A stretch of DNA of 63,995 nucleotides, filler included, from Porpidia crustulata (lineage: Eukaryota): NCBI GenBank assembly GCA_964255105.1. It is 7 parts of 7 records of this genome, joined end to end, with 100 filler letters (N's around TTAATTAATTAA, not from the genome) between each part and the next. Parts side by side here need not be neighbours in the genome. Positions count along the whole stretch, not along the records: positions 1 to 9,117 come from CAXUWE010000994.1; 6 more parts are not named here. The stretch is one strand, 5' to 3'. A model generated the notes under the pieces. The model was not told where the DNA came from and made no database searches. It worked only from the letters and a program-made list of their open reading frames with translations. Positions 54-22,282 of this stretch are shown one piece after another; within the stretch, counting starts at the first letter, position 1; each line of letters begins with the position of its first letter. The position numbers were made by a program, and so were the translations under genes.

Positions 54-383
54 AGCCACCTCCTATTTTCTTGCCGTTCGCACCGACTGTCAAGTTCTTG
101 CAAGTTTAAACGAGACTGTTAATTCAGCTCGAATTGGATGCTGATCAAAAGGCTCCATATATGGCTTCATCGGCCGTCCAACATGGGATCTTCTCCTCTT
201 ACCCTCTTGCCCTTTGCTCTCGTTTTCACTTACTTGCGGTAACTTGTCAGTATACCAATTGTTCTATTATCCGCGTTCTCATCGCATATTTACTCTACAT
301 ATAGCTCATACTGTCTCCCCTCGCTCTATACGTTTCAGTTCTTATTGTGATTTGAGTTATCTCTTGCTTTCACCTCGTTTCCA

Positions 384-3300
384 ATGACGAAAAAGAAGAG
401 GCCTGCTGCGCAGTTCTTCGATGATGCGGAAACGCATGGCTTAGAGCCCTTGATGAAGACCGATTTGAATAGTGACAAGGTCTCCAAGCACCTCGAGTCT
501 GGTACCGAAATCAATTATAATCGGATGTTGGTCCTTTGGGATGAGTGAGTCTTCACGTCTTTCTATACTACTACAAAACGTCGCAAAATCCTTACTGACT
601 GTGTCTCGTCTCGGTGAAACAGGTACGATAGAAGAAACCCTGGTGCCAGTCCTTATGATATTAAAACGGCAAAGCACTTCATAGAAGGTGTTGTGCGCGG
701 CTGCAGTGCCAGTAAGAAGGAGCCGTCGATGTACACCATGCTTCAAAAATGGACAGACTTCGGCGCTGGTTGGAAGCGTCGGCCTGGTAATGACAAGATC
801 CCTCCTGAAGTATCCGAATCCATCTACTTTGTTCGTTTTCCCACCCATCCTTGCTCTTCCTTGATTCGTTAAGTTTAATGATCTCCCTAGTACATACAAA
901 CGGAGCTTCGGAAGAAATTCGGACTTTCAACTACTCGACGAACCCGACATTTCATGACCGTGAACCACTTCGTCATTGTCATCAAACACATGTGGAAGAA
1001 GGATTGGCATCAATATAGACATGGACGGATCCTGGTTCAGGATCACGCTGCCTACATGCTTTTCATATATTCGTTGGCGCGAGTGGGCGAGTATTTCGAA
1101 TCCAATATGCGCAGAGGCTCTGGCCGTGGATTGCTGTACGAGGTAAGTCGATGGATCATATAGGACACTATCGATCAAGAACGCGCTTAGAACTTGTACT
1201 TACTCTTTGATCAGACTATTGACTTTGTCGTCTTCAAGAATGAAAAAGGAAAAGCGGAGATTGGTGTGCGAATCACACGGGATGCCAAAGGCTTTTCAGA
1301 AACGCCACACAAAAGGTTGCTTCACTGTTTAACGCTTCGGGAACATGATCACGAGCAATCTTTGCTGACTGTTCCGATGCGATATTAGGCCACAGCATGG
1401 CATGTATGAGGACATGGAGCCGCTATTTGCGAACCCGGTACTGCCTTTGCTGGCAATCGCCCTAGCGGACCGTGCCTTTCAGGACTATACGACTTTTGAA
1501 GAGATCGAAGCAATTCCCCCGCCCGCGGATGGCTCCTTGCATCACCTTCGAATCAAGAAGGACATGCTCCGCGTACCTTTCTTTCAGATAGTATCTGCGG
1601 ATGGACCAACGGGAAAGATTCAAGGAGCAGGCTCCTTTAGCAATCGGACAGTAGACCTAGGTCATCGTGCCGGGTACGAGGAAAACATCGGAATACATGA
1701 CATTCGAAGGGAAGCTCTCGTCAAAGCCGATGGTAAGCTCTTAAAACGGAACATTTCTGATCAGACACGCTGACTCCGTCAAGATAACGGGTACTCGATC
1801 TCCGAAAGGATGAAATTCGCAGGTCACAACAACTCGGATACCTTCTTCGGCTCATACGCGCCTGAGCTGAGTACCGTTAATGGTATGGCAAGTTACTGGA
1901 ATAAAAAACGTCGCACTATCTATCTTGAAGGTTTTCGCGAACTATCACTCCATCATCATCCCCAGCTGCTGCAATCGCTTCCCGCGAAAGTAGAAGCTGA
2001 TCTCGATAATTGTTCCGATTTCATATCTATTAACAAGGAGATCGAAGTGCTGGGAGAGAAACTCCGGGGTATCACAGCAGAAGATGAAGCCTAGCCTGCT
2101 CGAGCTCGACGAGAGGAATTGTATTGGTGGAAGCGTCAGATCGTGTCCGAGGAGCTCAGCAAATGGCAGCAGATCCAACCGCGCAAAATCGTTCTAGACA
2201 CCGAGGATGAAGCACCTCAGGTCGCGAGTCTTCCAAGCCACTTTAACCGCATTCGCCGTTTGGATCCACCACGTGATCGGCTGGAATCTTCGCTCTTCCT
2301 CAACGCTTCTCTCCGCAGTGCGCAAGGCCGTAGCGCACTTCAGGATATGATCACGCTGTGCGAAGAAAATCCGCGGGTAGCTTATCGACCAAGTTGGCGG
2401 CCTGAAAACGGTCGTTGCCCTGTACCCCAATGTGCGCGGGAGATGGATCGGTTCGTTTACTTTCCTTTTCCAATTTCCCAATTCCTCAATTGTTGCTGAC
2501 TGGCTGACAAAATGTGCTTCGGCTTTACAGCATCAATATCGCTGATAGGTGGGAACATATTTACCGTTGTCACAAGGGCGACCTTGAAAGGAAATAGGGC
2601 TTTGCCGAGCTTTGTTTTCAGTGCGACGAATGGTTCACCAGTGGGGCCGGATGGTTTGAGCACTGTCAACGCCATCTCACCGACCCCGAGACGCTCCCGG
2701 TTCAATGCAATCTCCTTGTCTTCCGCCGGACCCTCGCTACTGCTGGGCAATGTCTCTTCTGTCTTTTCGACTTAACGCTCTCACCAACAAAACGTTTCCA
2801 TCAGTTCTTCATCAAGCAGAGCTGGAAGAAGCATCTGCAAGAACATTTCTGGCAATTAGAAAACATATACAACCGATTCGTGGAAGCAGGTGAAAGCAAG
2901 GCAGTTTCATGTCCGGATCCGCGCTGCACACTTTCTTTCGACTCGATTCAAGATCTTCAGTATCACTGTCAAGATGTACACTGCGTTGAGCGGATCAAGC
3001 TCGATCCGATTAAAAGACGTCGCGGGACACATCAGTCTTCTTTGAATGTAAAGGCTTTCCCCGGGACGAGCGTTAAGCTAGAGCATCATTGTGACCTCCT
3101 AAACGAGGAAAGTCCCTACAAGCATCTCAGTAATATAGTGGACTCGCCAATTCTCGAGGTCGTTAACGTTATCGTTTCTCCAATATCAGTGGGACTGAAA
3201 GAGAAAAATAGCCCTAGTCAAAGTTACTCTCTTCCTTCGGTTAACTCAATAGCAAATCAGAAGAAGCGAAGTCCGTCCGCAGCGTCTTTCACGAGCTCTA

Positions 3301-3452
3301 AAAACCCGCTTTCGATAAGCGATTGGACCTCGGACGAGACCGCACTCGATAACCCGACACCAGCATCGTCGGTCTACTCCGACCCTCCTCTATCAATCGA
3401 TCCAAGACTGCTCCACGAGTCCGGCTCGCAGCCTATCATTCTTCCGGCATAG
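384..3452 (+). pseudogene. Starship captain-type tyrosine recombinase (DUF3435) with C-terminal Cys/His zinc-finger-like region; multi-exon; two in-frame TAG stops (2092-2094, 2595-2597)
   Basis: Manual splicing from ATG 384 (introns about 545-622, 831-890, 1143-1214, 1316-1389, 1733-1783, 2451-2530) gives the YR catalytic set in order: ARVGEYFES, RDAKG, HDIRR, KFAGH, FFGSY. These are followed by LQSLPAK, CPVPQC, ELCFQCDEW..HCQRH and CPDPRC..HCQDVH, as in DUF3435 captains. Confidence 0.88.
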
Positions 3453-4033
3453 CACATGACGCGTTCGCAGTCAAAGAGCTAGCAGTACGACCTTATCACA
3501 GTCCTTTGAGTAGCTTAAGGCCAAGAGCTGCTTCACTGACCTTTATAGAGCGGAATGAGAGTTTGTTGTATGTAACTTAAGTTCTGATCAGACAGGATTA
3601 GACAAACAAATCGAAAACATTATACTTGTAAAATACTCTCAAGTCTCACGTCTGCATATATGGGACGTATAGAAGTCTATTCAACCCACAGGCAAGCGGC
3701 TGGGCTCTAAAACTGTATTCTTAGGATAGGTCTACATTGCTTACAGCCAATTCGTGGTAATAGTAAAGCTTTGGCATAGATTGAAATAATCCTCCAATCA
3801 ACGCAGTGTGTCTAGATGTTCACCTCTCTTCCTTCGATGTGAAGCTCCAGTTTTGGCTACCCGGGAGAGAGAGCCAGAATTGGAGCCCCATGAAGAGTCA
3901 AAAGCTTCTGGCGTCCGATCCGGCTTCTGTTCATACCCAGATTCTTCAGTCTATGAGACTAAGTTCACTGGAACGATAGTCGGTAATTCCTTTGGGGCTT
4001 CTGATTAATTCACACTGCAAATAGTTCAAAGAA

Positions 4034-4781
4034 ATGACCTCTCGTCGATCTAACAATGTAAAGCGAACGGAGTGGAACAAGATATGCAGAGAGAAGCTAT
4101 CAGCGCATATATGTGAGAACCGTCATCTTCTATGATCAGACGTTGCTGACCCGAGCTAAGATAGAAGACTCGGGATCGCGATAGAAACGTCGCAGGTGCG
4201 GCTCAAAACCAACGCGGATGATCCTTACACATGGGAAAAGATGGACGAAAAAGAGCACCTGTTCTCAAAGAACCTAAGTGATCTTTCGATTGGCCAGCTC
4301 AAGGATTTGTGTGATGGTTTCGACAAATCGTCTATAGCCATCTGGAAGATCCCGTTTCAATCGGAACTTCCGGTACAGGATGGGGAAGAGTCTGTACGCG
4401 CTGCTCATCTTGATCAATTCGACGTTTAACTGACTGTCTAATAAGTTTTTGGAATTTCCCAAGCCGGAAGTCAGCTTTGTTGCAAAAATAAACAAGCTAC
4501 AACAAGACAACATTAAGTTAACTCGCGAAATTAGCAAATGGAAACATGGCGTCGTCCTAGAATCGGAAAGGAGACGAACAGCTGAACAGGAGACAAGTCA
4601 ACTGAAATCCACCATTCAGCAGCTGCAGATTGACAATGGAAAACTCGAAAAGCACATAACGGAGTGGAAACTAATAGCCGAAGAATCCAAGAGCAATGCA
4701 GACAGATATTGCAGAGAAATGAATAAGATTTTCATGGCTCTGGAGGAGGTAAAATCGGTGCTACCTTGCACCCTGCACTGA
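4034..4781 (+). CDS. Hypothetical spliced coiled-coil protein (putative Starship cargo)
   Basis: ATG 4034 MTSRRSNNVKRTEWNKICREKLSAHI, intron, RLGIAIETSQVRLKTNADDPYTWEK, probable second intron, then heptad-rich ORF 4449-4781. Confidence 0.6.
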
Positions 4782-5309
4782 AGAGTACCTCAGATAGTCA
4801 GTCATACACCCGTTTTTCAGCGGGCAATGTGAGCCAAGGAGGTAGCATAGATGCGGTAGATACTGTTGTAGCCATTTGGCAGAGCCTGCGTCTGACGTCA
4901 AAAGTTTGCATTCTACGCATACAATTTCCCCCTGATTTTCCAGAAAATCACATTTGCGTATCAGTCTGGGGATAGCCTGACAATATTCTAAATTACGGAT
5001 ACATCGTCAGCGAATATACGCGGATTAGATTATCCATTACAGCAATCTCCAAAAATAGATACTGGCAGCTTCACTCTTGGCTTCGATGATTACGATGATG
5101 ATGTTGTTGGTGAGGAAAACTCATGTGTTGAAACCGAAGCTAACATTCCACAATCCAAATCAGGTCAGTTTGCCATCCATGTCCTCCAATTGGTGGCTTC
5201 ACTATTTGGTCAGCCGGATTTTTTCCACCCTCACCAAAATCACACCCTTTTCCCTCATCCCTCAGCTCCACGTAGACCTTCCACCTTACGTTACTTTCGT
5301 CGCTTCGTC

Positions 5310-7196
5310 ATGGCTAAGCAGCGTTCTCCAGATGGGAGACTGGTCTATCTCCACTGCGCATCAATCTTCAGCGGGATAAACGCGCACGTTCGAAAAGTCA
5401 AGAAAATCTCCCAGCTTCTGGAGAAGCATAAGGCATCCATCAAAATCCTCACAAAGGAATTTACCTTGTCAGCCGTTGCTGCAGTTGCGAAAGAGTTGCT
5501 AGAAGAGCAGATTTTCGAATCCTTACCCCAGGCAAAGTTCCGTTACCCAGAGTTGTTCCAGCCGTCAGAGACGCGAGAGGCCGAAAGAGCGGCCTCGGAG
5601 GCAGAAGTCATTAGGATCGAGGCTGAGGCAGCACAAGACATAGTTCTGACTTCCGATGACGAGGGAGGAGATGAGTACCTAGACTTTGAGCAAGGCGAAC
5701 AGCGGGCTGAGCCCGAAGGAACATTAGAAGACAAAGCCGAGGCTATGGAGAATGTTCAAATCAGCGCTGTTAAACTGTGGCAAGTATAAACGCTCGAGAC
5801 AGGACAATTACGAAGCTAATCTTCTTGATAGTCAACAATCGATCTCCCAAGCACGCCACGCGCTCCCTATTCCCAGGCTTCACCCTGTTTATTTGCCATT
5901 CAAAACGCAACATAGAATTCTAGTCTTAGTTCAGTTTTTGCTTGAGAAATGCTGTCTGGAGTTCGGCAACACTTGGGTCCCAGATTTGATGAAGGCGCGG
6001 AAATGGCACGAAGCAGAGTCCATTGAACTCACTGAATTGACTAAGAGATTTTCGAAATACGCTAAGTCTTTACCGCCATCAGCCATTAAACCGATTCCCG
6101 GCAAAAGCATCGCTGAGGTTCTCTTTGGAACAAGTACCCTTCGTCACTCAGCTGTTCATCGTCTTTCAACTAGCGCGGCTGAGATTTTGAATATGCTTAG
6201 TTCAGCAATCACCTTTGCAGAAGCTCTTAATGACTCCAAACGAGCGGACAAGATAGCGGAAATCAAAACGAAGCTAGAAGCTAGCATAGAGGAAATTGTG
6301 CAGCATCAAAATCTGCTCGAATGCAAGCTCACAGATCAATTTGAAGATATTGCGCGTCGGAGAGCTGAACTTGACGAGTTAGAAAGATCTTCCATCGAAG
6401 AGATGCTGGAAACGGACGAGAAGCAACGCACTGAAGTTGGCTCTGCCTTTGAAAGCTTCCTTGTTGATTTCCAGCAGATCTTCAATCCTTGCGCTTGCAG
6501 TCATACACCGAGCTTTGACGGAGTGAAGGCGGACTCTAAGGCAGAAGAGAATATCGAGTGTAGCTGGATAGATACGTTTCTATATGCCCTTTTTTTTCAT
6601 TTCAAGTCCCGTCCGTTCCTATATCTACTTCTAACACTCCCTCTAGAACACGAACTGAAGCCAATACTCCAAACGACTTAGATGATCCATATGAATCAAC
6701 CCCAGAAGACGACGTCGCTCCAATACACAGTACCCCAGCTGAGGATGTTGAGTTCCTTGTACCGCCTCCAAGGCCTGCTCTTTGTACCGTGCGCGATAAA
6801 TCTGATTTTCATTTACCTCATCCGTCGGCGCCATCATCCACGGTAACTTTCATCCTTGAGGCTGCAGCCCCAGAGGCGCCAACGAAGGATAGTCACACCA
6901 TCACGCTCAAAATTCTGAACGGCAGCAAGGTTCTCAGATCTATTGTCTTAATCAGAGCTTGTACACGGACGGCAATCTTAAAAGAAGCAAAAGCATATTG
7001 CGTGAAATGTGCGCAAGGTGATCAAAGTTTTCGGAGGCTGCTGTTAAGGGGGTGGAATTTGACCTTGTTGCCATTAAAAATGTACGGGTATGACATGGAC
7101 TTGTCGATCTACAAGATTGAGAATTTGTCCTCTCTAATTCAGACTGTTGAGAAAACGGATATTCCGAGATTTACACTTCGAATCTCTGAGATTTAA
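5310..7196 (+). CDS. Uncharacterised protein with HEPN-like Rx4H motif (LRHSAVHR) and coiled coil; 3' exon structure uncertain, possibly damaged
   Basis: ORFs 5190-5789 and 5752-6681 join in frame through a GC-AG intron (5780-5831). RHSAVH at 6142-6159. A branch point and acceptor (ctaac..ctag, 6646) precede a last exon running into ORF 6789-7196. Confidence 0.6.
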
Positions 7197-7741
7197 AAAG
7201 CATTGAGGTAGAGGTGTTCTCCTAATCCTTGGATTTTGAGAACAAGTCTTTACATTTAGGATGAAGATTAAGTTTTTAATCTTATAATGTATATCAATAT
7301 GACGGGCGCAAATATATGCAAAACAAAGATAAAATAACGGTTTAAAACAAGTTGTCTTTACGTTAATTTCCTCCTTAACAGGGTTTAATGAAAATTCTTA
7401 TTATTTTTATCGTGAACTTTACATATAGTAAAACGCGATAAAGAGTAAGATTCTAAGAAAAGCTGACTATGACTTCAGTTAAAAATACAAACGATGAATT
7501 ATATTATCAGGTAAAATGTATATTCATATCTTTCTTCCTTCGCAGTCCGAGCATCCTCTTGATCTTTCAAGCTTCATGTTTATTCGTCATCTTCTTATAT
7601 ACGAATTTTCTCACGCTGTGACCTCGCCTTGAAGCTCCCATCTAGGAGCAGATATGGAACGAACGGGCCGTACCAATTTCCTATTCGAAAGGACTTGAAT
7701 CGTCCATCGCCAAGCTAGCCATCCTTTGGCCCCCCATCCAC

Positions 7742-7998
7742 CTTCAGCTCCGCTGCTCCACTCTTGGCTTACCCGATCCACTTCTGGCTCCCCTAATCCA
7801 ATAATGGCTAACACAATACACATCTGGATCCCCAAAAAAAATAATAAATAACCNNNNNNNNNNCCTTCGGTCTCCGCCTCTGCACTCTTGGCTCCCCCGA
7901 GCCAGCTCCGGCTCCGCTACTCCACTCTTGACTCCCCCAGTCCACTTCTGGCTCCGCTGCTTCACTCTTGGCTCTCCCGATCCCCTCCTGGCTCGCCA
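7742..7998. repeat. Degenerate ~36-bp GCTCC-rich tandem repeat spanning a 10-N gap
   Basis: Repeated gctccgctgctccactcttggctcccccgatccacttctg-like units on both sides of N 7854-7863. Confidence 0.7.
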
Positions 7999-8485
7999 AT
8001 CCGCTCTCTCTATTCGAGAATTGCGATGGGAATCTCCCGAACAATTCTAACTAGGCCTTTACTCGTCTTCGCTGACTTAAGATGATGGATTTGTTACTGA
8101 AGAACTTTTATTCTCGATGTTGATGGATGAGAATGGTCTAACGTCCATCCCTGCGTCGCGGAAAGCCCACTGTACCGGAAAATGAGAGGGGTACTTCAAC
8201 TTTAAGCGACTATGACCCTGCGCATACGTCGGGATCTACTACAATCATGTGTCAGTCGTATGCTGTGGCTACTTATAAATGTTCGAGACTCCTCCTACCT
8301 GAAAATTACGTTCGTATAGTCGCCCTTGCGCCTGATTCGCAGAGAGCTTCCTTCTGTAGCGTAATAATATCCCATCTCTATAGCACTACCGTTAAGCTCT
8401 TACCACTCAATAATACTCATGAACAATCTTATCTGAGCTCCAAAGACTTACTACGATGCTAGGAAGTCATCATCAGCCTTATATG

Positions 8486-9117
8486 TGTCATGATGCGCAA
8501 ATTCATGCAGGGTCGCTACCCTAGTTGGTACTTCAAATGAAAGCAGTTACCAACTCCGGCTAGTGTAAAACAGCCCCGTATGGCTCACGTAATCAATACA
8601 GTGTAATTTATTTGTGTCATCCGGTAAGCGGACCCTCGGAATATGAAGAACTACCCCAGTTCCATTAATCTCACCTCGCCCGGAAAAGTTCCAGGAACGC
8701 CGATGCGCGCACAGTAGTAATTAGTACTGCGCACCCATCACCCCTCCCAAGCATTCCTAGACCTCCTAAGACAGTCAGAATCAGTTTAAAATTGAAGCTA
8801 AACACGTTCAGGGACTACTCAGCTATGCCCCCGCCGCGCAATCGTCCCCCCCTGTCAGGTCCACCCAATTCTATGAGGATTTGGCCGAAAAGGTGGTCAC
8901 CAAAGCCAGTGAACCGAGCCAAAAGCCTGCTGCCGCCAAAAAGGGGGCACAAGCTCCAGCCAGAGCTGCCGTTGCTTCCGAACTACTCGGTGGTCAGGCT
9001 CAGACTCCTCAGCCAGAGGTGCGACCGTCGCCAACGCCCCCCCCGCAAGAGCTCCCTCAGACCCGACAAAACGATTGGGTACAGCTACTACCAATAGCAC
9101 AGTTGGCTTTCAATAGC
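8486..9117 (+). mobile_element. Internally deleted Ty3/Gypsy LTR retrotransposon (putative LTR from TGTCA 8486, Pro/Ala-rich gag-like start, integrase fragment), truncated at contig end
   Basis: 9064-9117 encodes RQNDWVQLLPIAQLAFNS, a typical fungal Gypsy integrase segment (QxDWxxxLPxAxFAxN). Confidence 0.6.
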
Positions 9118-9217
9118 NNNNNNNNNNNNNNNNNNNNNNNNNNNNNNNNNNNNNNNNNNNNTTAATTAATTAANNNNNNNNNNNNNNNNNNNNNNNNNNN
9201 NNNNNNNNNNNNNNNNN
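9118..9217. other. Artificial contig spacer N44-TTAATTAATTAA-N44
   Basis: Identical 100-nt structure occurs six times and has stop codons in all six frames. Confidence 0.98.
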
Positions 9218-9318
9218 GGAAACCAGCTGGGCGTCGAATTATAATCAAAGAAAAGATCGTAGCATCATCGTATCATATCAACCACCGACCATCAACCCAA
9301 ATCCCAACTCCCTCCCAC

Positions 9319-12300
9319 CTAAATCGACACGAAAAAACTCCTCTCCCCCTCCTCCGCCTCCACCCGACACCTCTCCACAATCTCATCGGCGCAGCTAATC
9401 CGAATCCTCTCCACCGTCGCCGGGCTCCGCAAACTCAGCACCTCCTCGACCCCGCACCCCTTCCTCGCCGCCTTCAACGCATCCCGGATGGCGAAGAAGA
9501 CGGCACTGCCCATGAACAGCGGCGGCTCGCCGACGCCGCGCGAGCGCTGGATCGTGCGCAGGTGCTCCCACTCGACGTCCTTGAGCAGGCTGACGTGAAA
9601 GCTCTGCGGGATGTCGCGGAAGCCGGGGATCTTATAGGTACCGGGGCCCTTGGTGAAGAGCTGGCCCGAGGCGCGGTGCCAGAGGCTCTCCTCTGTGGTG
9701 AAGAGGCCCTGGCCCTGGACGAAGGCGCCTTCGATCTGGCCGTAGTCGATGGACGGGTTGATGGAGCGGCCGACGTCCATTTTGATGTCGGCGCGCAGGC
9801 AGGTCCAGTCGCCGGTGAGGGTGTCGATTTCGACTTCGGCGGCGGTGACGCCTTGGGTGAAGTAGTAGAACATCTGGCCCGTGTTGGGGCCCCAGACGTA
9901 GCCGATGTCGGGTGTTTTGTAGAAGCCGTTGGCGGAAAGGTTGACGCGGTCAAAGTAGGCGGCTTCGGCGAGTTGTTTCATGGTGGCTTTAGTGCCAAAT
10001 TTCTCTCGATAAGGGGCGAGGCGAGTGTTTAATTGTTCGCAGGCATTATAGATGGCGTAGCCGTTCAAGTCGCTGGAGGCGGAGGCGGCGGTGGAAGAGG
10101 TGTTGGGAACGGTATTGGTCGCTGTTTCGGTGATGTGGACATCGGCGAGTGGGACGGAAAGAGCCTGAGCAGCGATCATGGTCATCTTTGTGTGGAGGCC
10201 TTGACCCATCTCGCAGCCGCCATGGGCGACTAAGACGGAGCCATCGTGGTAGATGTGGACGAGAGCGCCGGCTTGGTTGAGGAAGATTGCGGTGAAGGAT
10301 ATGCCAAATTTGGTGGGGATTATGGCGAGGCCGCGTTTATTCCACTTGTGTTTGGCATTGAAGTCTTCGACAGACTTCCTGCGCTCGGCGTAGTCGCTTT
10401 CAGAGATGACTTGCTTATACATGAGAGGGACATGCCAGTCTTTGAGCTCCTGGTTGAAATGTGTGATTTCGTTGGGTTTATACAAGTTAATTTCACGAAG
10501 CTTTTCGATAGGCATACCCAAATGATCCGCAACTTCTGACATGTACGTTTCCCCAATGAACATCCCTTGTGGCCCGCCAAATCCACGAAAAGCGGTATTG
10601 GAGACGGTATTCGTCTTTGCGATTCGCCCACGAACATGAATATTCGGTATGAGATAACAACCGTCGATGTGGGACAATGCTCTGTCAACGACGGCGCCAC
10701 TCAAGTCTTGGCTCCATCCACCGTTACAAAAGACATCTGCGTCGAGTGCCTGGAGCTTTCCATCCTTGTTGACGGCCACTTTCCACCTTGCCAGGAATGG
10801 ATGTCTTTGGCCAGATGTTACAATGTCCTCATCACGGTTTAGCATACACCGGACAGGCCGTTTAGTCTTCTTTGCGGCAACAGCACATATTGCTGAAAGC
10901 TGAATGGATCGAGTTTCTTTCCCCCCAAACCCTCCGCCAAGACGCTTCACTTTAGATACAATTTTGTTGGCTTGCACGCCGGTAACATTGGCAACATAGG
11001 ACTGCCTAGGCGGATATCAGTAATAGTCAAGTTACCTCTAGAGGCTAGACTCACGTCTCAGTGGGATTCTGTGTGCTACTCCAGACTTCAATCTCTCCAT
11101 CCTCTGGTTTCGGTATTACTACGCATGCATTGGTCTCGAGATAGAAATGCTCCTGCCCACCCATCCGGACTACACCGCTAAAAACGTGATCGGCTGTTCT
11201 GAAAGCACCCTCAGGGTCTCCTTTGTTGATGTAGCGGTAGTGCGGGAAATAGCTCTCTTGAGCGACGGCTTCTTCTATAGTGAATATCGCAGGCAATTCC
11301 TGGTATCTCACCATCACAGCCCGAGCACCAGCTTCAGCATGTGCGGCAGAATCTGCGAGAATCATCCCTATCGGTTGGCCATGACTGAATACCTCATCTA
11401 TTGCGAAGAAAGTTTCATCACAATTTGGAGCACCCCACCAATTGGCCTCTGGGTTAGGTAGATCATGACGATCAACCCAATCAATGACACCTGGCAGATT
11501 CATGGCTGGGAAGACATTGACGTCTAGAATTTTGGCATGAGCTTTACTTGACAGGACCATGACACCGTAGAGCTCATTTTTCTGTGCAGGAATATCGTCG
11601 GTATATTGTGCCTCGCCAGTGCATTGCTTCAGCGCTGCTAGATGTGGATTGGCCTGACCAACAACGCGCTGCTGGTATACTTGCGTGGCGTCATGGTCTT
11701 TCTTTCCTGTGGATATTGCACGTTCGATCTCCCCTTGTACATCTTCATCTACTTCTAAGCCTTCCGCGCGCAATTCCGAGAGAACCTCGTGATAGTACCT
11801 GTAGAAGAACCCCAAAGCAAGCGATTTCCGGTAGGTAGCCATACCACCAGGTACGCCAAAACGTAGGTCAAAGTCTTGGCCTAGAGCATTCATGGTACCT
11901 TCCAATGTCCTGGGGTCAGTCCACTTTTTGCCCTTCAGATACTTCATGGCCTCTTTCGCCATAGTGGTAGTTGCAGCCATTCCACCATATACCAGACTGA
12001 CACTTTCAACCTTATGTCCTTCATCCAAAGAGACACGCAATGCCGCATTAACGATAGCTATATCGTCATCTTTCCGCTTGGCTTGCTTGTAAGCACGCAA
12101 ATATTCTCCTTTCTCCCGAGCCACTGGGATTCGCAAGCTAGCAATAACGGCATCAGGTGGTAATGCAGTCGTTCTGTAGCCTTTGAAGAATTCGGTCATT
12201 GGTATTTCCGTTTCCTTTTCTAGCGACTTTGCTACGAGGAGAGTGTTTGTTACGACGAAAACTGGATTTAGATCTGATATAGGGGACGCAGTGGCAAGAT

Positions 12301-13564
12301 TGCCAGCAGGTGTTCCAACATTGCGAATTTGCCGACCAGCAAAATATCGAATTTGCTTATGGATTGCCGCAAACGGCTGTCCTCGGACTGGACCGTAATG
12401 TTTAATAGCTTTCACACAAATATCTTCAAGATCGGTCAGTACTACATTCCCACCAATTTCAACATAATCATCTTTCAAAGAATATTGCCGTAATTCGGCA
12501 ATGTCTCCGACATAGACTGACGCAGTATAATGCATCCCTTTGAACTTGATTTCAATTTGTGTCTCGGTACTTCCTCCAATGACCTTGGCCGACGGATGTA
12601 CGCTTTTGATTTTGAGCAATTGCTCTAGTGTGACTGGTCTGTACCACTTCTTGCGTTTGTTCCCAAATGCCAAAGGCTTGAATTTGTGATTTCTGAGCGC
12701 AGGAGGAAATATCAGTTGCGTATCTGGATTATACTCGATGAAACCAGGAGGAGTAAAACGTTTGATAGGCTGGTCCTCCTTGTCTTCCTGAGAGCCTTTC
12801 ATACAACAGCCACTTCCTGAAGCACCATTGCCCTTTTCCATACAACAACCACCTCCCCCATTCGCTGTCGATTTACCGCAAGCCTTCTTTGCACTGAAAG
12901 ATTGAGCCGCGTCTAATATAGGCCGATAGCCTGTACATCGACAGAGGTTTCCATCAAAGGCTTCTTCGACATCTACTTCAGACGGGTTTGTATCGTTCCG
13001 CAATAACGCATACAGGCTCTGTTGTAAAGATAAGCTCGATCATCCTTTAGAATAGTCAATTTCATACCATTACTATTCCAGGTGTACAAAAACCGCATTG
13101 GCTACCGTTACTTTTTGCTATACGTTCTTGTGCTGGATGTGGGTTTTTGACATTGCCAATACCCTCCACCGTTATAACATGTTTCCCGTCAACACTTACT
13201 AAAGGAGCCAGACAGGCATTTACAGAGGCATGATAGATTTTGTTCGTTGTCGGGTTTAGCTGTGATACCACCTATATATGATCCCATTAGGACAGTTCGA
13301 GTCCGGTTCGCGATTGAATTGACTAACGACAGTGCAAGCTCCACATCCTCCTTCCGCACACCCAAGCTTGGTGCCGGTTAATCCAATGCCTCGAAGATAT
13401 TCAAGTAGCGTGATCTCAGGGTCAATGGACTCATCAAGTACAACTTTGGTACCATTGAGGTAAAAGCGAAGACCGGAGTCATCGAAAGACTCTGTGACAT
13501 TTTGTAAAGAGAATAGTGAAGATCGAGACACGGCTGGCTCAGGTTCTATAAGTCCAGGAGCCAT
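9319..13564 (-). CDS. hxA: Xanthine dehydrogenase (purine hydroxylase I), about 4 exons
   Basis: Fe-S motifs [26 protein letters not shown] and [15 protein letters not shown] domain [11 protein letters not shown]; Moco domain [21 protein letters not shown] and SRGVGEPPL. Confidence 0.97.
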
Positions 13565-14115: not shown

Positions 14116-15254
14116 ATGCGTCCCCGATTACAATTCTTCCGATCGGCTCAAACTTGTTCCTCTCGGCTTCTATGGCGGACTTTGTCTCCCCACCAGGCTC
14201 CTCTATCCCTTCGTGTGGTGCAGCAACGGTCCATCACTGCCGACGAAAAACCCCTACCCGAAGCCGAACAGCCAGGACCAGGGCCAAACCAGGAACAACT
14301 TCCACATGTCAGCGAAGAAGCAGCAGCTACGGGGAAAATTACGGGTGAAGGTGGACCGGAATTGAGCCAAGGGACTCCTGTGCAGGAGGTATGCGATGAT
14401 TCCTAACATCAGGTCTGAGAGCGGCGGACTGATGCCCCATGTGCAGATTCTGCAACGAGACAAGGACAGTCAGAAGAAGGCGCCAAAGGTCATGCAAGAA
14501 GAAATGAAGCAATCCTCTCCATCCGGAACTCGATCATTCTCCACTTCAGCAAGACGGCCTGCAGATGCTTTGGCCAACCCACAGTGTTTGGGAATGCAAG
14601 AGGGAACAGAGGACCTCGATCTGCCTGAGCTACCTTTACCAAGCAACGCACACATGAAATACCGCTACGACCCCGTGATCAAACAAGTCACGAACCTGCT
14701 GATGAGAGAAGGCAAACTGAGTGTCGCTCAGAGGGTAGGCCCGTCAGTTCCTCGGCTTCTCGCTCGCCAATTGAACGCTACAATCGCCAACCAATCTATC
14801 GCTAACGCTCAAGTGACAGAACATGGCAATGATTCTCACGCATCTCCAAACAGCGTCACCGCCCGCCGTCAATCCCGATCGGCCTCTCATCATCGGCGCC
14901 CCTCCTGCGTCTCATCTTCCCCTCAACCCTATCCTCTATCTCACCCTCGCGATTGATTCAGTGGCGCCGCTCCTTCGTATACGATCCCAAAGAGGAGCCG
15001 CAGGTGGTGGGATCGCTTTGCAGATCCCAGTGCCTCTGGGGGTGAGGCAGCGAAGACGTCAAGCTGTGCAGTGGATTCTCGACGCGGCCAGCAAACGGAA
15101 AACGCGAGGCAGTGGGAGAGGCCAATTTGCTCAAAAAGTAGCGGAGGAATTGATTGCTATCGTTGAAGGGAGAAGTGGTGTATGGGATAAGAGGGGCGGG
15201 GTTCACAAACTTGGAGTCAGCGCTCGAGCTAATATGTCATTTCGGCGGCGATGA
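14116..15254 (+). CDS. RSM7: Mitochondrial small-subunit ribosomal protein uS7m, 3 exons
   Basis: R/S-rich targeting peptide; RYDPVIKQVTNLLMREGKLSVAQR; AIDSVAPL; PVPLGVRQRRRQAVQWI; VWDKRGGVHK. Introns 14389-14446 and 14735-14819. Confidence 0.92.
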
Positions 15255-15720
15255 AGCGGACTGTAGATATTACGAGCTATTTGTGCATACAAAGTCATCC
15301 AACGAACCACACATGGTGTCTTAGAAGTTGCGCAGGCTTACAAAACCCCGGCACGATCAGACGCAACCTTGAGCTCTTCTACCCATGACGATTCCATTCC
15401 ATTCGCAATTCTACCACCCAACTAACTTCACCATTCACACAAAACCACCGGCAACTCACCACGCATCCCTCCGCCCACGCATCCCCGCTACTCCCCCAAC
15501 CCTCATCTCTTATAACTAGCTATACTGACGAACATTTTCAGTTCGAAGTTAGCTATCGTCGTACGTTCTCCGCACCACCCAAAAGGGGGTTTCCATGAAC
15601 AATACTGGGGCTGTATGGTGGACGAAGGACTTTCGCCGTAGGTAGCGCGGTCTTCAGAGAGCTTGAGGGTCTCACTGGGGTATGATTGGTATTATATGGC
15701 TTTCATGTTGGCTAGGAGTG

Positions 15721-15780
15721 ATTGCTGTTATTTACTTTGCATTGCTGTTATTTACTTTGCATTGCAGTGTGTTACTTTGC
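15721..15780. repeat. 20-bp tandem repeat, 3 copies
   Basis: attgctgttatttactttgc twice, then attgcagtgtgttactttgc. Confidence 0.85.
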
Positions 15781-16599
15781 GTGCAGCTATATCACCTTTG
15801 AGGGACTTAGTCTTGCGGTCACTGTCTACATACATACGCGTCAAATGATTCTATTCTATTTCTCGCATTCTAGGAAGTTGCAACTGGATATTGCCATCTT
15901 TAGGTAGTGGGTACAATTGATGTAAGCTTGAATTGTATTCAGCCATTCGTAAATATGATTCGTGAAGCCGTAGTTTTGGATTGGATGTTGAACAGAGACA
16001 ATGAAGCCCTACAGAACCAGCCACAACAGATATTGCCCATAAAAATGTGAAAGAAAGTTGGGAGGAGCAACCGTGCGGTCAAGGTGGCTTTGAGTAATTT
16101 TGCTTGGCTTTCTCGGTTAGCCCTAGGGGCCCCAGTTGCCTTGAAACAGCTGGAAGGAGGCCCCCATAAAGAGAATATCGATAATTTAGGCTCGGCCCGC
16201 TATCTTATGCTGGGGGTATGTAGCTGATTATTTTATACGACCATCGATATGATATAATTATTTACTTGGAGAACATTCTTCCTCGAACTACGATCAGTTT
16301 CCGTTTATCTCTAAAAAGCTCACGTCTAGTCATGATGTCATATGTCTCCGAAGCGTGTGATATGGCCAGTGCATACTAGGAATGTTTGGAAGTCATCAAC
16401 CTACCTGAAAGGGCAAACAAGAGGCTCAGAAATTTCTAGATCATTCAGCTGTATTCTTCAAGCCTAAAGACGCCAAACAATAAGTCTTGATTGTGGAGAA
16501 GACTGTATTTCTCTGACCGTAGATATTTGACTCTCCTTACAACGACCCTTCAAGTCTGCAGGTTGAAAGAAATAGGATTTCTTACCTGGGTTTTTCGCA

Positions 16600-18334
16600 A
16601 TGTCTCTTGAGAAGGCGCTGGATGATGAGCGACGGCATGTGATAAATGTCCTGGAGGGTCGCTCCGAGCAAAACACAGATTCAGCTCTGCCGGAGGCCAG
16701 AAGAATGCTTGATACTCATAGTCCATCATCTGTTCCTTCACCAGCTACTACTGCAGAAGTATCTAACCCTCATCCTGACTCAGCAGATGTGTCTACACCT
16801 TCAATCGCTCGGCGCTTGTCAAATACAAGTAGCTCAGCTTTGAAGCCAAGTCCTCGTAAGCAGACTACGTCCAAAACCTTTCACAAGCCGGGATTCGATG
16901 CACCAACTCGTACTGGGCGCGATTTAGAGAAGGAAGGTGTAAACCCAACTATTGATTATGACTTTAGTATGGAGCCGAGCATACAAGGCTCGGCTTCGCA
17001 AAGACGACCTTCTCAAGATGGAAAGAAGTCATTGGGGATGAAATCTATGGCAGCAATCATGCAGGGGCAGCGACTTTCGCCGTCGCCGGTTGGCGTAGTC
17101 GGAAGGAGACATGATTCGACCTCTAGTGTCCTTTCAGGAAAATCCAATTCACCAGCTTCTCAACGGAGTAATAGATCCGCATCGCCGGGAAAGGGTCTTC
17201 TGTTGAGCCCCGGAAAGTCATCAAGCCGTAATGGTAGGTCTGTCGATCCAAATGATGTACCCTGTAAGTTATCCGATGCAACGAGTCTCAGCTCTGTGGG
17301 AGATCAAGCGGGCTTGGTTAGTGGTGAATCTAGGATGCAAGAAGACAGCTACCCAGATGAACAAGCTGGGGAGAATATCGAATCCAGCGATGATGAACGT
17401 TATGGTGAAAATTCTGCTGATGATGCCCTTGAGTCTGATGGTGCCCGAGGAAGAAGGCGAGATAGACGAAGAAAGGGTTCAGCGGAAGACGATGTGAACA
17501 CAGATGGAAGTGAGGCGGACAATATAGACATTAAAAAAGGGCCCATGGCCTCAAAGTATAAGGTCAAATCATTGTTAGAGCCCACCGTCACAGTCACCGG
17601 TCCAAGGGGCGAGCGTCTCACGGTCAGAAAATCCGGGGTACACCCCAATACTAATTACGACCAATCTGCCAGCAGGAATGCAAGTCCCACGACCTCGGAT
17701 TCAGATGACCTGAATGATATCCGACGCGCACAAAGAATGCAGATCAACTCATCCCCAGTTGACACTTCCATCCCTCACCGTGTCATCCGAACCATAATCC
17801 GCGGAGACTTTGCCAAAATGCAGGAAGAAGCCGAGGAAGGCTCAAGGCGATTACGAACCTACCTCGTAGCCACCGACTTGAGTGATGAAGCCGCCTACGC
17901 CCTCGAATGGACCATCGGCACCGTCCTGCGTGATGGAGATACCCTCCTCGCGGTCTACGCCGTCGACGAAGAAATCGGCACCGGCAAGACGTCAGACACT
18001 GACGGCCTCCCAATCGGTGAGGGCGCCAAGGCCATGCGAGACACGACCGCCCTTGTGGAAAAAATGACCACGTCCGCTTCAAACGCCCAGCTCTCCGCTG
18101 TACCGTCGCCACTCTCGAACCCGGTCCTGCTGCCCGGATCCGGCCGGGGCAGCGGGGCTGGCTCGGCCGACTCGCGATACCAGTCCAAGGCGGAGCAGGA
18201 GCGCTCGCACGCCATCGAAGGCATCTCGCAGACGTGCATCAAATTTCTCCGCAAAACCAAACTCCAGGTCCGCATCGCCGTCGAAGTTATCCACTGCAAA
18301 TCCCCCAAATACATGATCACCGAAGCCGTATGCC
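16600..18334 (+). CDS. Universal stress protein (USP) domain protein with long disordered N-terminus; 3' truncated by contig end
   Basis: RTYLVATDLSDEAAYALEWTIGTVLRDGDTL ... LRKTKLQVRIAVEVIHCKSPKYMITE. Confidence 0.9.
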
Positions 18335-18493: not shown

Positions 18494-19263
18494 CCCTTGC
18501 TAGCTTGGATTTATAGACCCGTAGGTTAGATCATGTATCAGCACTCAACTTGGCTCGCATGGCTACAACTGACGGCAACAGTCATGTTTCGAGTTCCGCA
18601 TACTTCGCTATAACAGCAAGCAGTCGATGCGAATTGCTAGTATAATTCAGAATTGCTTGGCTGCCTAGCGATCCAAACCGGTTACTGAAACTGCAGAGAT
18701 ATGCAAGATACTGTACGAGCATGCGGCTGGCGATTCATTCTAGTAGACTACAGTATATAGGCCGAAACAAATGTCTCCAAACCCTGGTTGTTGCGCCTAT
18801 AGGCACTGATATTTACCGCATGTTACAAGCGACAACCAGCGCATATCCAAATCTAAGATACAACTGGGCTGGACGACGCGGCAATCTCAAAGTCTTTGAC
18901 TGGCATTTTTCTGCCACATTTTCTGAGCTTTGGTCATATTGAGGAAGCCCTTGCACGGACATCTCGGCAATCATGACAAAAGTACAATGGGAGCTTTAGA
19001 CACCATCGCCTCTCGAGGATTGGCCGGGAGATCTTCATTATTACTGTGATCTGCTTCCTTAAAGCCCCGATTTCCAAGCAAGCCTTTGATCCGTCTAGGC
19101 ACATGCTAGGGATAACACATGGGGTCCTATCAGCCAAATACCGCTTGTAGAGTCTCACCTATGTGTCTGTCTTTACGACGACAATATCGTTCTCCAGCTT
19201 ACACCAGAGGCTTGTACACCCGTCATTTCTCTCGTATTCATTCCTCTCGTATAAGTTTGCTTT

Positions 19264-20150
19264 TCAGTCGACTTCATAGCTGCAGATCGCCATGTGACCT
19301 TCAATGCAAGCCTCATCATCTAAGATGGCATTATGAATTTTTCCGTAAGCCATGCGGATGACCCTGTTGGACGGAACTACTTGGTGGCAATTGATAGAGG
19401 ACCTCCCCACAGTCTGAGCTGTTCCTTGGAATGTACAAGACCAGAATTTTTGGTCAATATGCCCGGAATCTTGCTGGCTCCTAACGCATGATTTGCAATG
19501 AAGTCCGTGGACGAGCTTTCTGGTCTTGCCCTCGAGACGCACTCAAGCAAAAATTGAAAATGCCGTATAACAAAGCAGATCTCCAATCTCTGATTATATA
19601 ATGTTCAAGTCATTACAGCACAGCCGCTGTCACTCGACTGAACAATCGCTACCTCATGTAGCAGCGACTACGGATCCAGTTTTTGTCATCTTCGCCTCCG
19701 GGTCTTAAGATTGTCACGCGTCCTCTAGTAATATTGTCAGAAATATCAGAGCGAATTCATTAACTTGGGCCCTCTAAAAATTTGTTTGCTATTGCTAAGA
19801 TCGCAAGCAGAGTTTTGGTGTGGTTCTCGGCGCAGTATGCGCAGCACTGTTGAGACTTGATGAGGAAAACTAAGCCTTCAACTCGACCGCAGAAGGAACA
19901 TTTTGGATTGCGCAGAGTTCGGTCGATACTTTTCAACAAATTATCCTCTATCCGCCACTTACATAACGCAGCCATCACTTCGGGGACCTGTGGTACCGCT
20001 CTTCTGTATCGAGGTGCCAAATTAACGACGTTGCGGGCAGAATGCTAAGCCATCCTGCAATTCCGTATATCAAGACATGACAAAGTCTTCAGAATACCTA
20101 TCACCACTTCTGTTGGTAGACAACCCAACGTACCGAGAGACGAGCAAGTT
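19264..20150 (-). pseudogene. Decayed F-box protein gene with Cys-rich region
   Basis: SSLGTLGCLPTEVVIGILKTLSCLDIRNCRMA*HSARNVVNLAPRYRRAV...KCSFCG...QQCCAYC; internal stop; end coordinates approximate. Confidence 0.6.
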
Positions 20151-22282
20151 CAAGGCTCTATCGGGGGAGGTCCCAGACTTCGAGGACAGTTTATTCCGCC
20201 AACTTTGGAGAGGCCTTCAGAAGGTTTGGAGATCTTGAGACAATCCGCTGGCGGTGTCTGGGAGAGATATTCCACTATCTGTACATTGATGGGTTCATCA
20301 ATTGTATGACTGCCTCAACTTTTCGAAACGAGAATGAAGTAGCTGCCGAATATGATATTTCCCTTGCTCTACCGAGTCTATGGCTATCGTCCCAGAAGAT
20401 CTATGCCGCTTGTATCCGCGTTCTTCGAATACTAAATGCTAATGTTTGAAGAGGCGTAGCACTTGTATCAATGAAGAAAAAGCTAGAAGACTAAAATCTC
20501 CCAGTAATAGGAACACAGATCACGTTACATGATGCCGAAGGCAATTCGGCGTTGAGCATTACTATTTTCTAGGTGATCACTTACAATTTACTTGCGTGTG
20601 GATAACGATAGCAAACCATCTGTGAGGTATCATCGACGACGTCATCAAAGCCCGTAGTCTGATACTGCCGAAAAGACTCTAAGCATATGGCAAATATTAC
20701 CCAGAAGCTGCCGGAGCTTATTTCCAGTCTCTTTTTATTATCTATTTCATTAGATGTCTAGAGTTCAGTTAAATCCGTCAAATTATCAAGGTCTTAAATC
20801 TTTAGCATACAATTAAATTTCTTTGCTCAAATCTTCCAACAATATAAAAGTAAAGATACTTCTCAAAGAATGATACACTTAAGTAGATAGAGCGACAGCA
20901 GTCCATAGACCTTAGAAAGGTGTCGATATGGCAGAAATATAACAATTGTGAATCATTGTCCTACGCGGGGTTTTTCCTGCACTGATATGATAGAAATATC
21001 TCAAGCTTTGATAAACAGAGCTACTGCTCAAGACGTTTAGGAGCAAGGATTCAAGAATCGTGTACGAGTTCATTCTTCTATAACTCTGAATTCACAATAT
21101 TAATCACATTTATCCTTTCAATTATTTCTATATCTTTCTTATGACGGGAATATCATCATCTCTACTGCGTAAGACGCAAGCAAGTCAAATCTCTTTCAAC
21201 AGAAATCACACCTCCAATCCTTTGCCTCCATATAATTATTCCCCGCAAATTGCTCTCAACCATTCGCCGCTACACTCGAGGACAAGTCTCCGGGGCCGAA
21301 CAAAAACAGAAGAATTAGCCCCTGAGCAAGCCAGCTTTCATACACCCATATCAATGCTCTAAGAAATACTTGCCATGTACGCAAACCGTGCAGACCTCCT
21401 ATCTGCCGACCATCTATCTCAGCTCCGCGCTCCAAACTCAACAATCAATCTCCCAAATCGCCAACTCCCCAAAATCCCCTCAGACAGCACCTTCACCCAG
21501 CCAGCCCGCGAAAACGTCCTTGCCGCTCCATATCTTCAATCCCACAATCACAAGATCAGCCAAAAACGCTAATTGTCCACGGAAACCACGCTTTTTCCAA
21601 CCTGCCGATCTCAAGAAATCCGATAGCTTCATTGCCCTCCGCAGTCTTGTCGCTCAAACCCAGCTATCTACTCCTGTCTTGTTCCCCAATACCCCCCCCT
21701 TAAAGCTTCCCCCCACACACACACTAGCGTATACATTCCACCTGGACGACAATTAATACATCTATGAAATATCTATGCTGATATATACGTTCTCTCGGAA
21801 CCTTCTGTGAAATTTTTTCAAAACCGCGCAGTCTTCCATGATCCTAGCAGCGGAGGGAGAAAATGTGAGAATAGGTACCTGTTAGCTCGATGTCAGTACC
21901 AAAGCCAGAGTTTCGTTATTTTCTCTGTATACAGAACATTTGAAAAGAATGATACGAGACCCTTGATGCATTGATATTGATGCTACGAAGAGGTTGAGGG
22001 TAGGCTTATATGTGCTACGTTACGGAGCATTAAGGGGGCTTTGATGTTGGCGTACGAGAGGAGGAAAGGCAGGGTTAGCGGTTCAACTATTACAAGTGCG
22101 TATGCGCGGTACTTGAGAAGGGCCAGGAAAAACTATGGTAGGGAAGTGCTAAGCAAATGTATCTCGTTTTCGAGCTACAAGAGTCTTAGGTCTTTAGTGA
22201 CCGTCTATGACCAACGCACTGACCAAGCAAAATGGTATGATGCGCGCCTCCTCTAGCCAATTCTTTCCATTCTCATTTTCCT

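Follow-up and report, generated by a model that had tools for sequence, protein, structure and literature searches.

Damaged copy of a probably chromosomal HEPN-like gene family beside a decayed transposon in Porpidia crustulata

Locus and gene model

The stretch of Porpidia crustulata DNA studied here (assembly GCA_964255105.1; 63,995 nucleotides, called the window throughout) carries at 5310-7196, on the plus strand, a gene that an initial annotation had picked out as a candidate HEPN-type RNase close behind a Starship 'captain' recombinase. The window DNA is eukaryotic, with short GT..AG introns, and the closest protein relatives come from lichen-forming Lecanoromycetes. Protein alignments with orthologues resolve 5310-7196 into a single gene of three exons and two introns. 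Upstream of it, on the same strand, lie a DUF3435-type recombinase gene and pieces of coiled-coil open reading frames (ORFs), and downstream, on the minus strand, a xanthine dehydrogenase gene.

As reference orthologue we use P0006, a protein of 785 amino acids (aa) from Lepraria neglecta. Exon 1 (5310..5776) encodes an N-terminal helical domain and an acidic linker, with residues 1-158 of P0006 aligning to 5310-5783 at 91% identity. It is followed by intron 1 (5777..5831; GT..AG, 55 nt), whose splicing gives a junction, ...AVKLQQS..., that matches P0013 and P0021. Exon 2 (5832..6571, or with its 3' end at 6557 if an upstream GT serves as donor) encodes the HEPN-like domain and a coiled coil, and P0006 residues 158-404 align to 5833-6573 at 87% identity. 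Intron 2 occupies its orthologous position (6572..6646) with the donor GT changed to AT. Exon 3 (6647..7196), which encodes a C-terminal domain, is in frame only by way of a weak donor, GTGTAG at 6558, and residues 628-785 of P0006 align to 6672-7193 at 74% identity. Lichen orthologues have in addition a linker of about 220 residues that is disordered, along with a small C-terminal domain, and P0006 residues 405-627 have no counterpart in the window copy.

Within exon 2, the HEPN-like four-helix domain covers 5884..6237 (exon-2 residues 18-135). The sequence features on which the initial annotation had relied are all in place: LLEKCC at 5938-5955, with its invariant Glu (E38) at 5944..5946, then LRHSAVHR at 6139-6162 (R at 6142-6144, H at 6157-6159), then a long helix. 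The core of the second motif, RHSAVHR at 6142..6162, is of the Rx4H form, in which a polar His follows the Arg and the next Arg is invariant, and it spans the end of the helix at residues 93-108 and the start of the following loop. The long single helix (6235..6483; model residues 135-217) has many coiled-coil fold matches and is read as a coiled coil.

Domain assignment

An AlphaFold2 model of window exon 2, built with an alignment of 102 sequences (A1), has a predicted local distance difference test score (pLDDT) of 91.0 and a predicted template modelling score (pTM) of 0.76. Its helices lie at residues 23-48, 50-55, 66-77, 93-108, 115-131 and 135-217, and it contains a four-helix up-down bundle of two alpha-hairpins. 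A second, independent model, of the orthologue P0025 (444 aa; pLDDT 80.8), gave a similar list of fold matches, and residues 1-118 of that model form a separate and confident helical domain (pLDDT 86-98).

In the passages of PMC3710099 that define the HEPN domain, the Rx4-6H motif is placed where helix 3 ends and the loop to helix 4 begins, with a polar residue after the Arg, an acidic residue upstream and frequent inserts between helices 2 and 3. In the exon-2 model R104-x4-H109 closes helix 93-108, His105 follows directly after the Arg, E38 lies in helix 1 and E65 at the start of helix 2, and the second and third core helices are separated by an insert (residues 78-92). This fit of the motif topology to the definition is the decisive addition to the HEPN assignment.

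Structural matches were sought with VIA-align against 48,161 representative chains. The best match is the C-terminal domain of yeast Swt1 (PDB 4pqz), and about 14 of the top 35 rows for the P0025 model are HEPN domains, at a root-mean-square deviation (rmsd) of 3.0-4.1. The matches of this model include the HEPN-titled entries 2hsb, 3o10 (sacsin), 4nqf and 7ae2, and we take Roquin, AbiA and AbiF to be HEPN-containing proteins as well. The abstract of PMC4621449 describes SO_3166 (5yep) as a HEPN toxin, and 1ylm and 3c8g appear as HEPN structures in parts of PMC3710099. A competing group in the P0025-model list, the acyl-CoA dehydrogenase-type C-terminal helical domain, accounts for 11 rows at an rmsd of 4.2-6.1.

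Several results weigh against a HEPN assignment. Foldseek found no match in the PDB at E<=0.001 for either the exon-2 or the P0025 model, a PDB sequence-profile search gave four matches at E<=10, none of them HEPN, and weak Pfam matches to HEPN_RiboL-PSP occur in only 3 of 102 family members, with a best E value of 0.033. The check that the initial annotation had proposed, an AlphaFold model followed by a Foldseek search, gave nothing significant; HEPN structures were prominent in VIA-align. The missing Foldseek match and the lack of profile-level similarity to HEPN families would both suit a generic four-helix bundle unrelated to HEPN, in which the conserved motif serves ligand or metal binding or some other role. 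We consider this very unlikely: HEPN structures of many families dominate both fold lists and do so at lower rmsd, and we count five HEPN-defining features, of sequence and of topology, as present, with the Glu upstream in the sequence.

The Rx4-6H pattern by itself is no better than chance, as it occurs in 1,834 of 2,000 shuffles of the product and three times in the product itself; the weight comes from its conservation. A phmmer alignment of 210 rows has 203 that cover the motif, and over these the conservation is L 0.77, R 0.98, H 0.95, then S/T/A, followed by A 0.96, V 0.99, H 0.98 and a final R of 1.00. The initial annotation had asked for conservation of R and H in homologues, and this is clearly borne out (R 98%, H 98%, next R 100%; n = 203). 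The Glu of LLE is found in all 171 of 171 sequences of the same alignment. In A1 the residues Q34, E38, L66 and R110 are invariant, and Q26, H27, C41, W58, E65, W69, R104, H105, A107, V108, H109 and D134 are conserved at 90% or more. The pattern in a further alignment of 66 sequences with the full N-terminal part (A2) agrees with this, and there both E38 and E65 are invariant.

Fold matches, the Rx4H at the end of helix 3, the polar residue and the invariant Glu together uphold the HEPN-like part of the HEPN-type RNase claim, and the modelled domain is probably a HEPN domain. As to the RNase part, we lean towards an active enzyme. The alternative is a HEPN fold without enzyme activity, which would bind RNA or protein within a coiled-coil protein of structural or regulatory function, comparable to the probably inactive HEPN domain of Swt1. 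The best structural match is that very domain, which may be inactive according to portions of PMC3710099, and a long coiled coil with disordered linkers is typical of scaffold proteins. However, the same portions indicate that inactive HEPN domains lose the motif, whereas here the R, the polar H, the H and two Glu hardly vary among hundreds of representatives, and we regard an inactive module as unlikely.

The comparison with Swt1 itself has limits. Excerpts of PMC3710099 describe Swt1, of the Abi2/Swt1 branch of the superfamily, as carrying a PIN domain, with a HEPN domain whose motif is partly lost, in contrast to the near-invariant motif here, and sequence identity in the structural alignment with 4pqz is 9-10%. 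Neither the exons nor 16 full-length relatives yielded a PIN or other Pfam domain, which places the gene outside the Swt1 family proper. Las1 has a motif of R-H-x-h-T-H type, which resembles RHSAVH. Las1 is also alike in being a conserved eukaryotic housekeeping HEPN protein with intact catalytic residues (PMC3710099, in part), but it is pan-eukaryotic whereas the named members here are all from Pezizomycotina, no Las1 structure appears in either fold list, and the architecture differs, with an N-terminal helical domain and a coiled coil here. HepT/SO_3166, AbiF/AbiD, the AbiA C-terminal domain and Cas13 belong to toxin-antitoxin or defence operons, whereas here no partner travels with the gene.

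If the enzyme is active, the protein would be a metal-independent endoribonuclease. The coiled coil could pair two HEPN domains, so that two Rx4H motifs would form the active site, by analogy with known HEPN RNases.

A family in Pezizomycotina

A search with the exon-2 protein (241 aa) returned 79 longer relatives, 423-2000 aa in length and 93-40% identical; apart from Trichoglossum, almost all belong to named lichen fungi. At the level of cluster representatives, 906 matched at E<=1e-3, of which 545 reached E<=1e-10 and 87 reached E<=1e-30. Ten distant members were inspected, and these include proteins of Colletotrichum, Microsporum, Myotisia, Thelonectria and Trapelia. Every named family member that we saw belongs to Pezizomycotina. 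The ratio of nonsynonymous to synonymous substitution rates (dN/dS) for exon 2 is 0.22-0.38 in most comparisons, with three near-identical pairs outside this range. Judged from these sequences, this is an old family of large size on which purifying selection acts.

Existing annotation says little about it. No exon of the window gene matches a Pfam family, no Pfam family occurs in more than 5 of 102 members, and the PADLOC matches of the same 102 are of coiled-coil type only (ZorA, LmuB, JetC). Some members bear source labels such as 'ubiquinol-cytochrome-c reductase cytochrome c1' or 'BAH domain-containing'. Among 16 long members, Pfam gave no family in 15 and one sub-threshold match in the sixteenth, so these labels have no Pfam backing. 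In a protein atlas, exon 2 falls only into unnamed clusters, mostly of Ascomycota. The lead from the same atlas for exon 3, DUF2420, was weak (0.76) and was not used. Full-text literature on HEPN in fungi yielded no paper describing the gene family, with HEPN occurring 0 to 2 times in each paper listed, and the excerpts of the 2013 HEPN census (PMC3710099) make no mention of it. On sequence grounds, this is an uncharacterised nuclear gene family that is Pezizomycotina-wide.

If the fold holds, predicted HEPN RNases form a large family in filamentous ascomycetes that is unnamed in domain databases. Its architecture, an N-terminal helical domain with a HEPN domain and a coiled coil, would be new, and the predicted catalytic motif is strictly conserved. 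This provides a testable enzymatic hypothesis for a gene that occurs in lichens, in model fungi and in pathogens of plants and animals, and it would be worthwhile to name the family and assay it.

State of the window copy

The window copy is damaged in several places, which we compared with orthologues, with loci found in a scan of metagenome contigs (22 loci, named L below) and with sequencing runs (X1-X16). At the intron-2 donor the window reads GATAG|ATACGT where L012 reads GATAG|GTATGT; the relative P0004 reads ..WIGMF.. through intron 2, which implies GGTATG. A deletion junction at 6659..6662 marks the removal of about 0.6 kb of disordered linker, out of frame. The closest relatives, contigs from X2 and X14 that are about 96% identical, have 591 letters where the window has 2, a loss of 589 nt (3n+1), and the stretch equivalent to the deletion, which every other copy retains, measures 612 nt in L006 and 651 nt in L012. 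A 618-nt X1 contig crosses the junction with no mismatch, so the deletion is not an artefact of assembly. In the HEPN-like domain, TTG at 6037..6039 changes the family Trp (0.96; n = 196) to Leu (W69L), a change private among 19 close sequences, with G at 6038 in every other version compared.

If exon 2 is joined in the orthologous splice frame, or if intron 2 is retained, a stop codon follows at 6679..6681 (codon 414). Use of the weak donor at 6558 restores the frame and gives 580 codons with a single terminal stop and no linker. At best, the predicted product of the window copy is truncated (about 413-438 aa) or linker-less (580 aa). A long decay of this copy was considered and excluded, given that exon 2 has 2 private changes at columns invariant in 18 relatives, within the range of 1-5 seen in the others. 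With so little excess divergence, the damage is recent or the truncated product may still serve; an N-terminal domain, HEPN domain and coiled coil are the architecture of most family members.

Run X1 shares 87% of sampled words with the window and is probably the source sample. Over 5237-6314 and 6950-7136 it holds two versions at similar depth (about 16 and 16), with only a single version in the transposon zone. One version matches the window exactly, while the second departs from it at 61 of 538 positions (about 89% identical) and has the states of all other runs, including the G at 6038 that restores the Trp; it could be a paralogue or come from another fungus in the thallus.

Of the exact 31-letter words of 5200-7300, 16-23% occur in each of the runs X2-X16 (15 lichen, rock or unlabelled metagenomes from five studies), which means that near-identical gene stretches are widespread. 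In three of these runs compared in detail, the copies are 90-96% identical.

The close relative P0005 (697 aa, about 92% identical to exon 2) reads ..TLCHSAVHR.., with Cys replacing the near-invariant motif Arg. It may be a second member of the near lineage of the window copy that is losing the predicted active site.

Relation to the upstream recombinase

The 'captain' of the initial annotation is a DUF3435-type tyrosine-recombinase gene with a C2H2-like C-terminal region and several introns (384..3452, plus strand), with a Pfam DUF3435 match on 1369-1773 (E 1.4e-4). Its homologues have 800-1000 aa, carry PF11917 and bear the name C2H2-type in their sources; those of lichen fungi reach 92-93% identity. 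For a piece at 1390-1770 (127 aa), identity is still 73-79% with proteins of Exophiala, Aureobasidium, Aspergillus thermomutatus and Geoglossaceae (among P0355-P0364), and 76-79% for Exophiala and Aureobasidium. Such identity across classes is far above expectation and suggests horizontal spread of the predicted recombinase. We had considered heavy pseudogenisation of this gene and dropped the idea, since most of its frame breaks resemble introns, with branch-site motifs (CTGAC-like) and AG acceptors; the only clear lesion in the window is a premature stop, TAG at 2092..2094, where L015 and L019 have CAG (Gln) and an open frame. In the L015 lineage 2 nt are missing at window position 1488, and copies altered through repeat-induced point mutation (RIP) have many stops. 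With a lesion in each copy, and a different one each time, the recombinase appears inactivated in every copy seen.

The small coiled-coil gene of the initial annotation corresponds to ORF pieces at 4160-4429 and 4434-4781 (plus strand). Pfam found nothing in them beyond coiled-coil noise, and they are conserved only in loci that also carry the DUF3435 gene. By this pattern of conservation, the coiled-coil ORFs are part of the predicted transposon and do not belong with the HEPN-like gene.

The limits of that transposon can be read from RIP, which targets duplicated DNA. L012, L014 and L015 are one locus from different samples, 97-98% identical over 14-20 kb. L015 differs from L012 by C>T or G>A at 359 of 401 mismatches and from L014 at 371 of 401, mostly at different sites. 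These RIP-type changes are confined to 4000-8500 of L015, with almost none beyond. The HEPN-like gene, at 9467-12006 of L015, has 1-5 changes per 500 bp, and the 3.5 kb from the end of the RIP zone through the gene hold only about 9 (L012) and 11 (L014). The footprint ends about 0.5 kb ahead of the HEPN-like gene. L015 position 3753 aligns to window position 1, and the window stretch homologous to the RIP-marked unit is 250..4750 (plus strand), which holds the recombinase and the coiled-coil ORFs. Because RIP needs duplication, these footprint limits indicate that the repeated unit is a 4.5-kb element from which the HEPN-like gene is excluded. The window itself is not RIP-like, with RIP indices of 0.68 (TpA/ApT) and 1.18; TpA/ApT is 1.5 in L012 and L014, 1.2 in L019, 1.6 in L021 and 0.85 in L015.

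The two independent sets of RIP-type changes at one locus (359 and 371 relative to L015) also show that the RIP state of a single transposon copy is polymorphic among individuals or populations. Here these polymorphic footprints mark the limits of the transposon.

Seventeen of the 22 metagenome loci have at least 2 kb upstream of the start codon and could be scored for neighbours; five were left out for having too little upstream DNA. Seven of the 17 (L012-15, L019, L020, L021) carry the upstream genes of the window in equal order and spacing, namely the DUF3435 pieces (beyond the available DNA in L020), the C2H2-like region and the 4160 and 4434 ORFs. The other ten (L001-3, L005-7, L009, L011, L016, L018) have no DUF3435 gene or coiled-coil ORF. 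Grouped by shared flanks, the arrangement is present in three locus types and absent from six. Neighbours in the loci without it are Kei1, NAD synthase, sulfite reductase, XPA, a WD40 protein, Spo11, an Sdh subunit, a scramblase, a ferric reductase and a copper transporter. Hence, the co-occurrence with DUF3435 that the initial annotation had proposed to check is not regular (7/17 loci, 3/9 locus types).

The initial annotation had gone on to join captain, coiled-coil gene and HEPN-like gene into one module. In its full form, this would be a mobile addiction, drive or defence module on a Starship-like element, moving between lichen fungi. Spok killers are known as Starship cargo. Lichen Starships exist, and Tangerine of Xanthoria (PMC13486527, in part) is alike in its DUF3435 recombinase at the 5' side, its lichen host and RIP in the element. 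It differs in that the repeated unit here is only about 4.5 kb, with the HEPN-like gene outside it. A high recombinase identity across fungal classes, at 76-79%, is also what horizontally moving elements would show. A unit of about 4.5 kb is nearer to the size of Crypton-like elements.

Other observations favour such a module and weigh against a purely chromosomal gene. The order and spacing of recombinase, coiled-coil ORFs and HEPN-like gene are kept in three locus types (L012-15, L019, L020/21), in the window and in run X2, at 55-96% identity, within a shared block of about 9.5 kb that the window enters about 40 bp from its start and whose flanks differ between L014 and L019. The HEPN-like gene lies in at least seven unrelated contexts, and between locus types the homology is limited to the gene with about 20-140 bp upstream and 30-520 bp downstream. 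Synonymous divergence (dS) between copies in unrelated contexts is only 0.2-0.65. Quick trees of the gene from named lichen fungi are star-like and depart from taxonomy, and in an approximately unbiased (AU) test the monophyly of 13 rows that we presume to be Teloschistaceae was just not rejected (p 0.059). The two divergent versions in X1, of which the element-linked one is decaying, point the same way. Slow substitution rates in lichens, together with scrambled synteny in ascomycetes, can explain the low dS and the tree, as an uncalibrated account.

Against the module, RIP changes fill the recombinase and coiled-coil zone and spare the HEPN-like gene, ten of 17 scorable loci lack such neighbours, the recombinase is broken in every copy, and purifying selection acts on the HEPN-like family, which is both large and old. 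Neither element ends nor an empty site came to light, although no search was aimed at them. The RIP limits, the loci without the neighbours and the broken recombinase led us to give up the three-gene module as proposed, and with it the suggestion that this was the window's best candidate for a new system, a Starship addiction module, as the adjacency is better explained by transposon insertion. Because the mobility observations still stand, we retain a mobile module as a decidedly unlikely reading.

Our favoured reading, held with some reserve, is that the window gene is a damaged copy of a Pezizomycotina-wide HEPN-like chromosomal family, which lies beside a decayed transposon by insertion and is not its cargo. 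In one lineage, a 4.5-5 kb element with a DUF3435/C2H2 recombinase and the coiled-coil ORFs would have inserted about 0.4-0.5 kb upstream of the gene, and it would now be decaying. The place of the gene behind the 'captain' follows from the element sitting upstream in that one lineage.

There is also a slim chance that a compact DUF3435 element took up one HEPN RNase paralogue and shuttles it between lichen-forming fungi, as a selfish or defensive gene with the coiled-coil ORF as regulator. If true, this would explain the many unrelated positions with low synonymous divergence, the star-like tree and the two versions, as well as the decay of element-linked copies (the deletion in the window, the R-to-C change in P0005).

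Flanking sequence

The 3' flank of the HEPN-like gene (7197..7718, plus strand) is 75-77% identical to L006, L007, L011 and L017, which are otherwise non-syntenic gene copies, and the similarity ends at 7712-7718. Within it, 7289-7718 is common to these loci without the transposon and not to L012-15, and beyond it 7910-8138 is common only to L012-15, making the 3' flank a mosaic. Tandem repeats of period 40 (2.0 and 3.2 copies) at 7765-7994 flank a short run of N at about 7852-7863, and related contigs skip 84-126 nt at these repeats.

The xanthine dehydrogenase gene lies at 9319-12841 (minus strand). Its C-terminal 508 aa are at best 88% identical to a relative (Villophora microphyllina) and 82-85% identical to Dothideomycetes. 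We tried it as a yardstick of divergence and set it aside, as identities still at 82-85% across fungal classes make it too saturated to calibrate. Between it and the HEPN-like gene lie the runs of N at 7852-7863 and about 9100-9230, so the linkage of the two genes depends on joining across them.

Two of the related loci are flanked by NLR-type genes (TPR_10, PNP_UDP plus NB-ARC, SesA plus ankyrin), at 2736-3203 (minus strand) and 18599-20393 (plus strand) in L014 and at 14137-17027 (minus strand) in L007.

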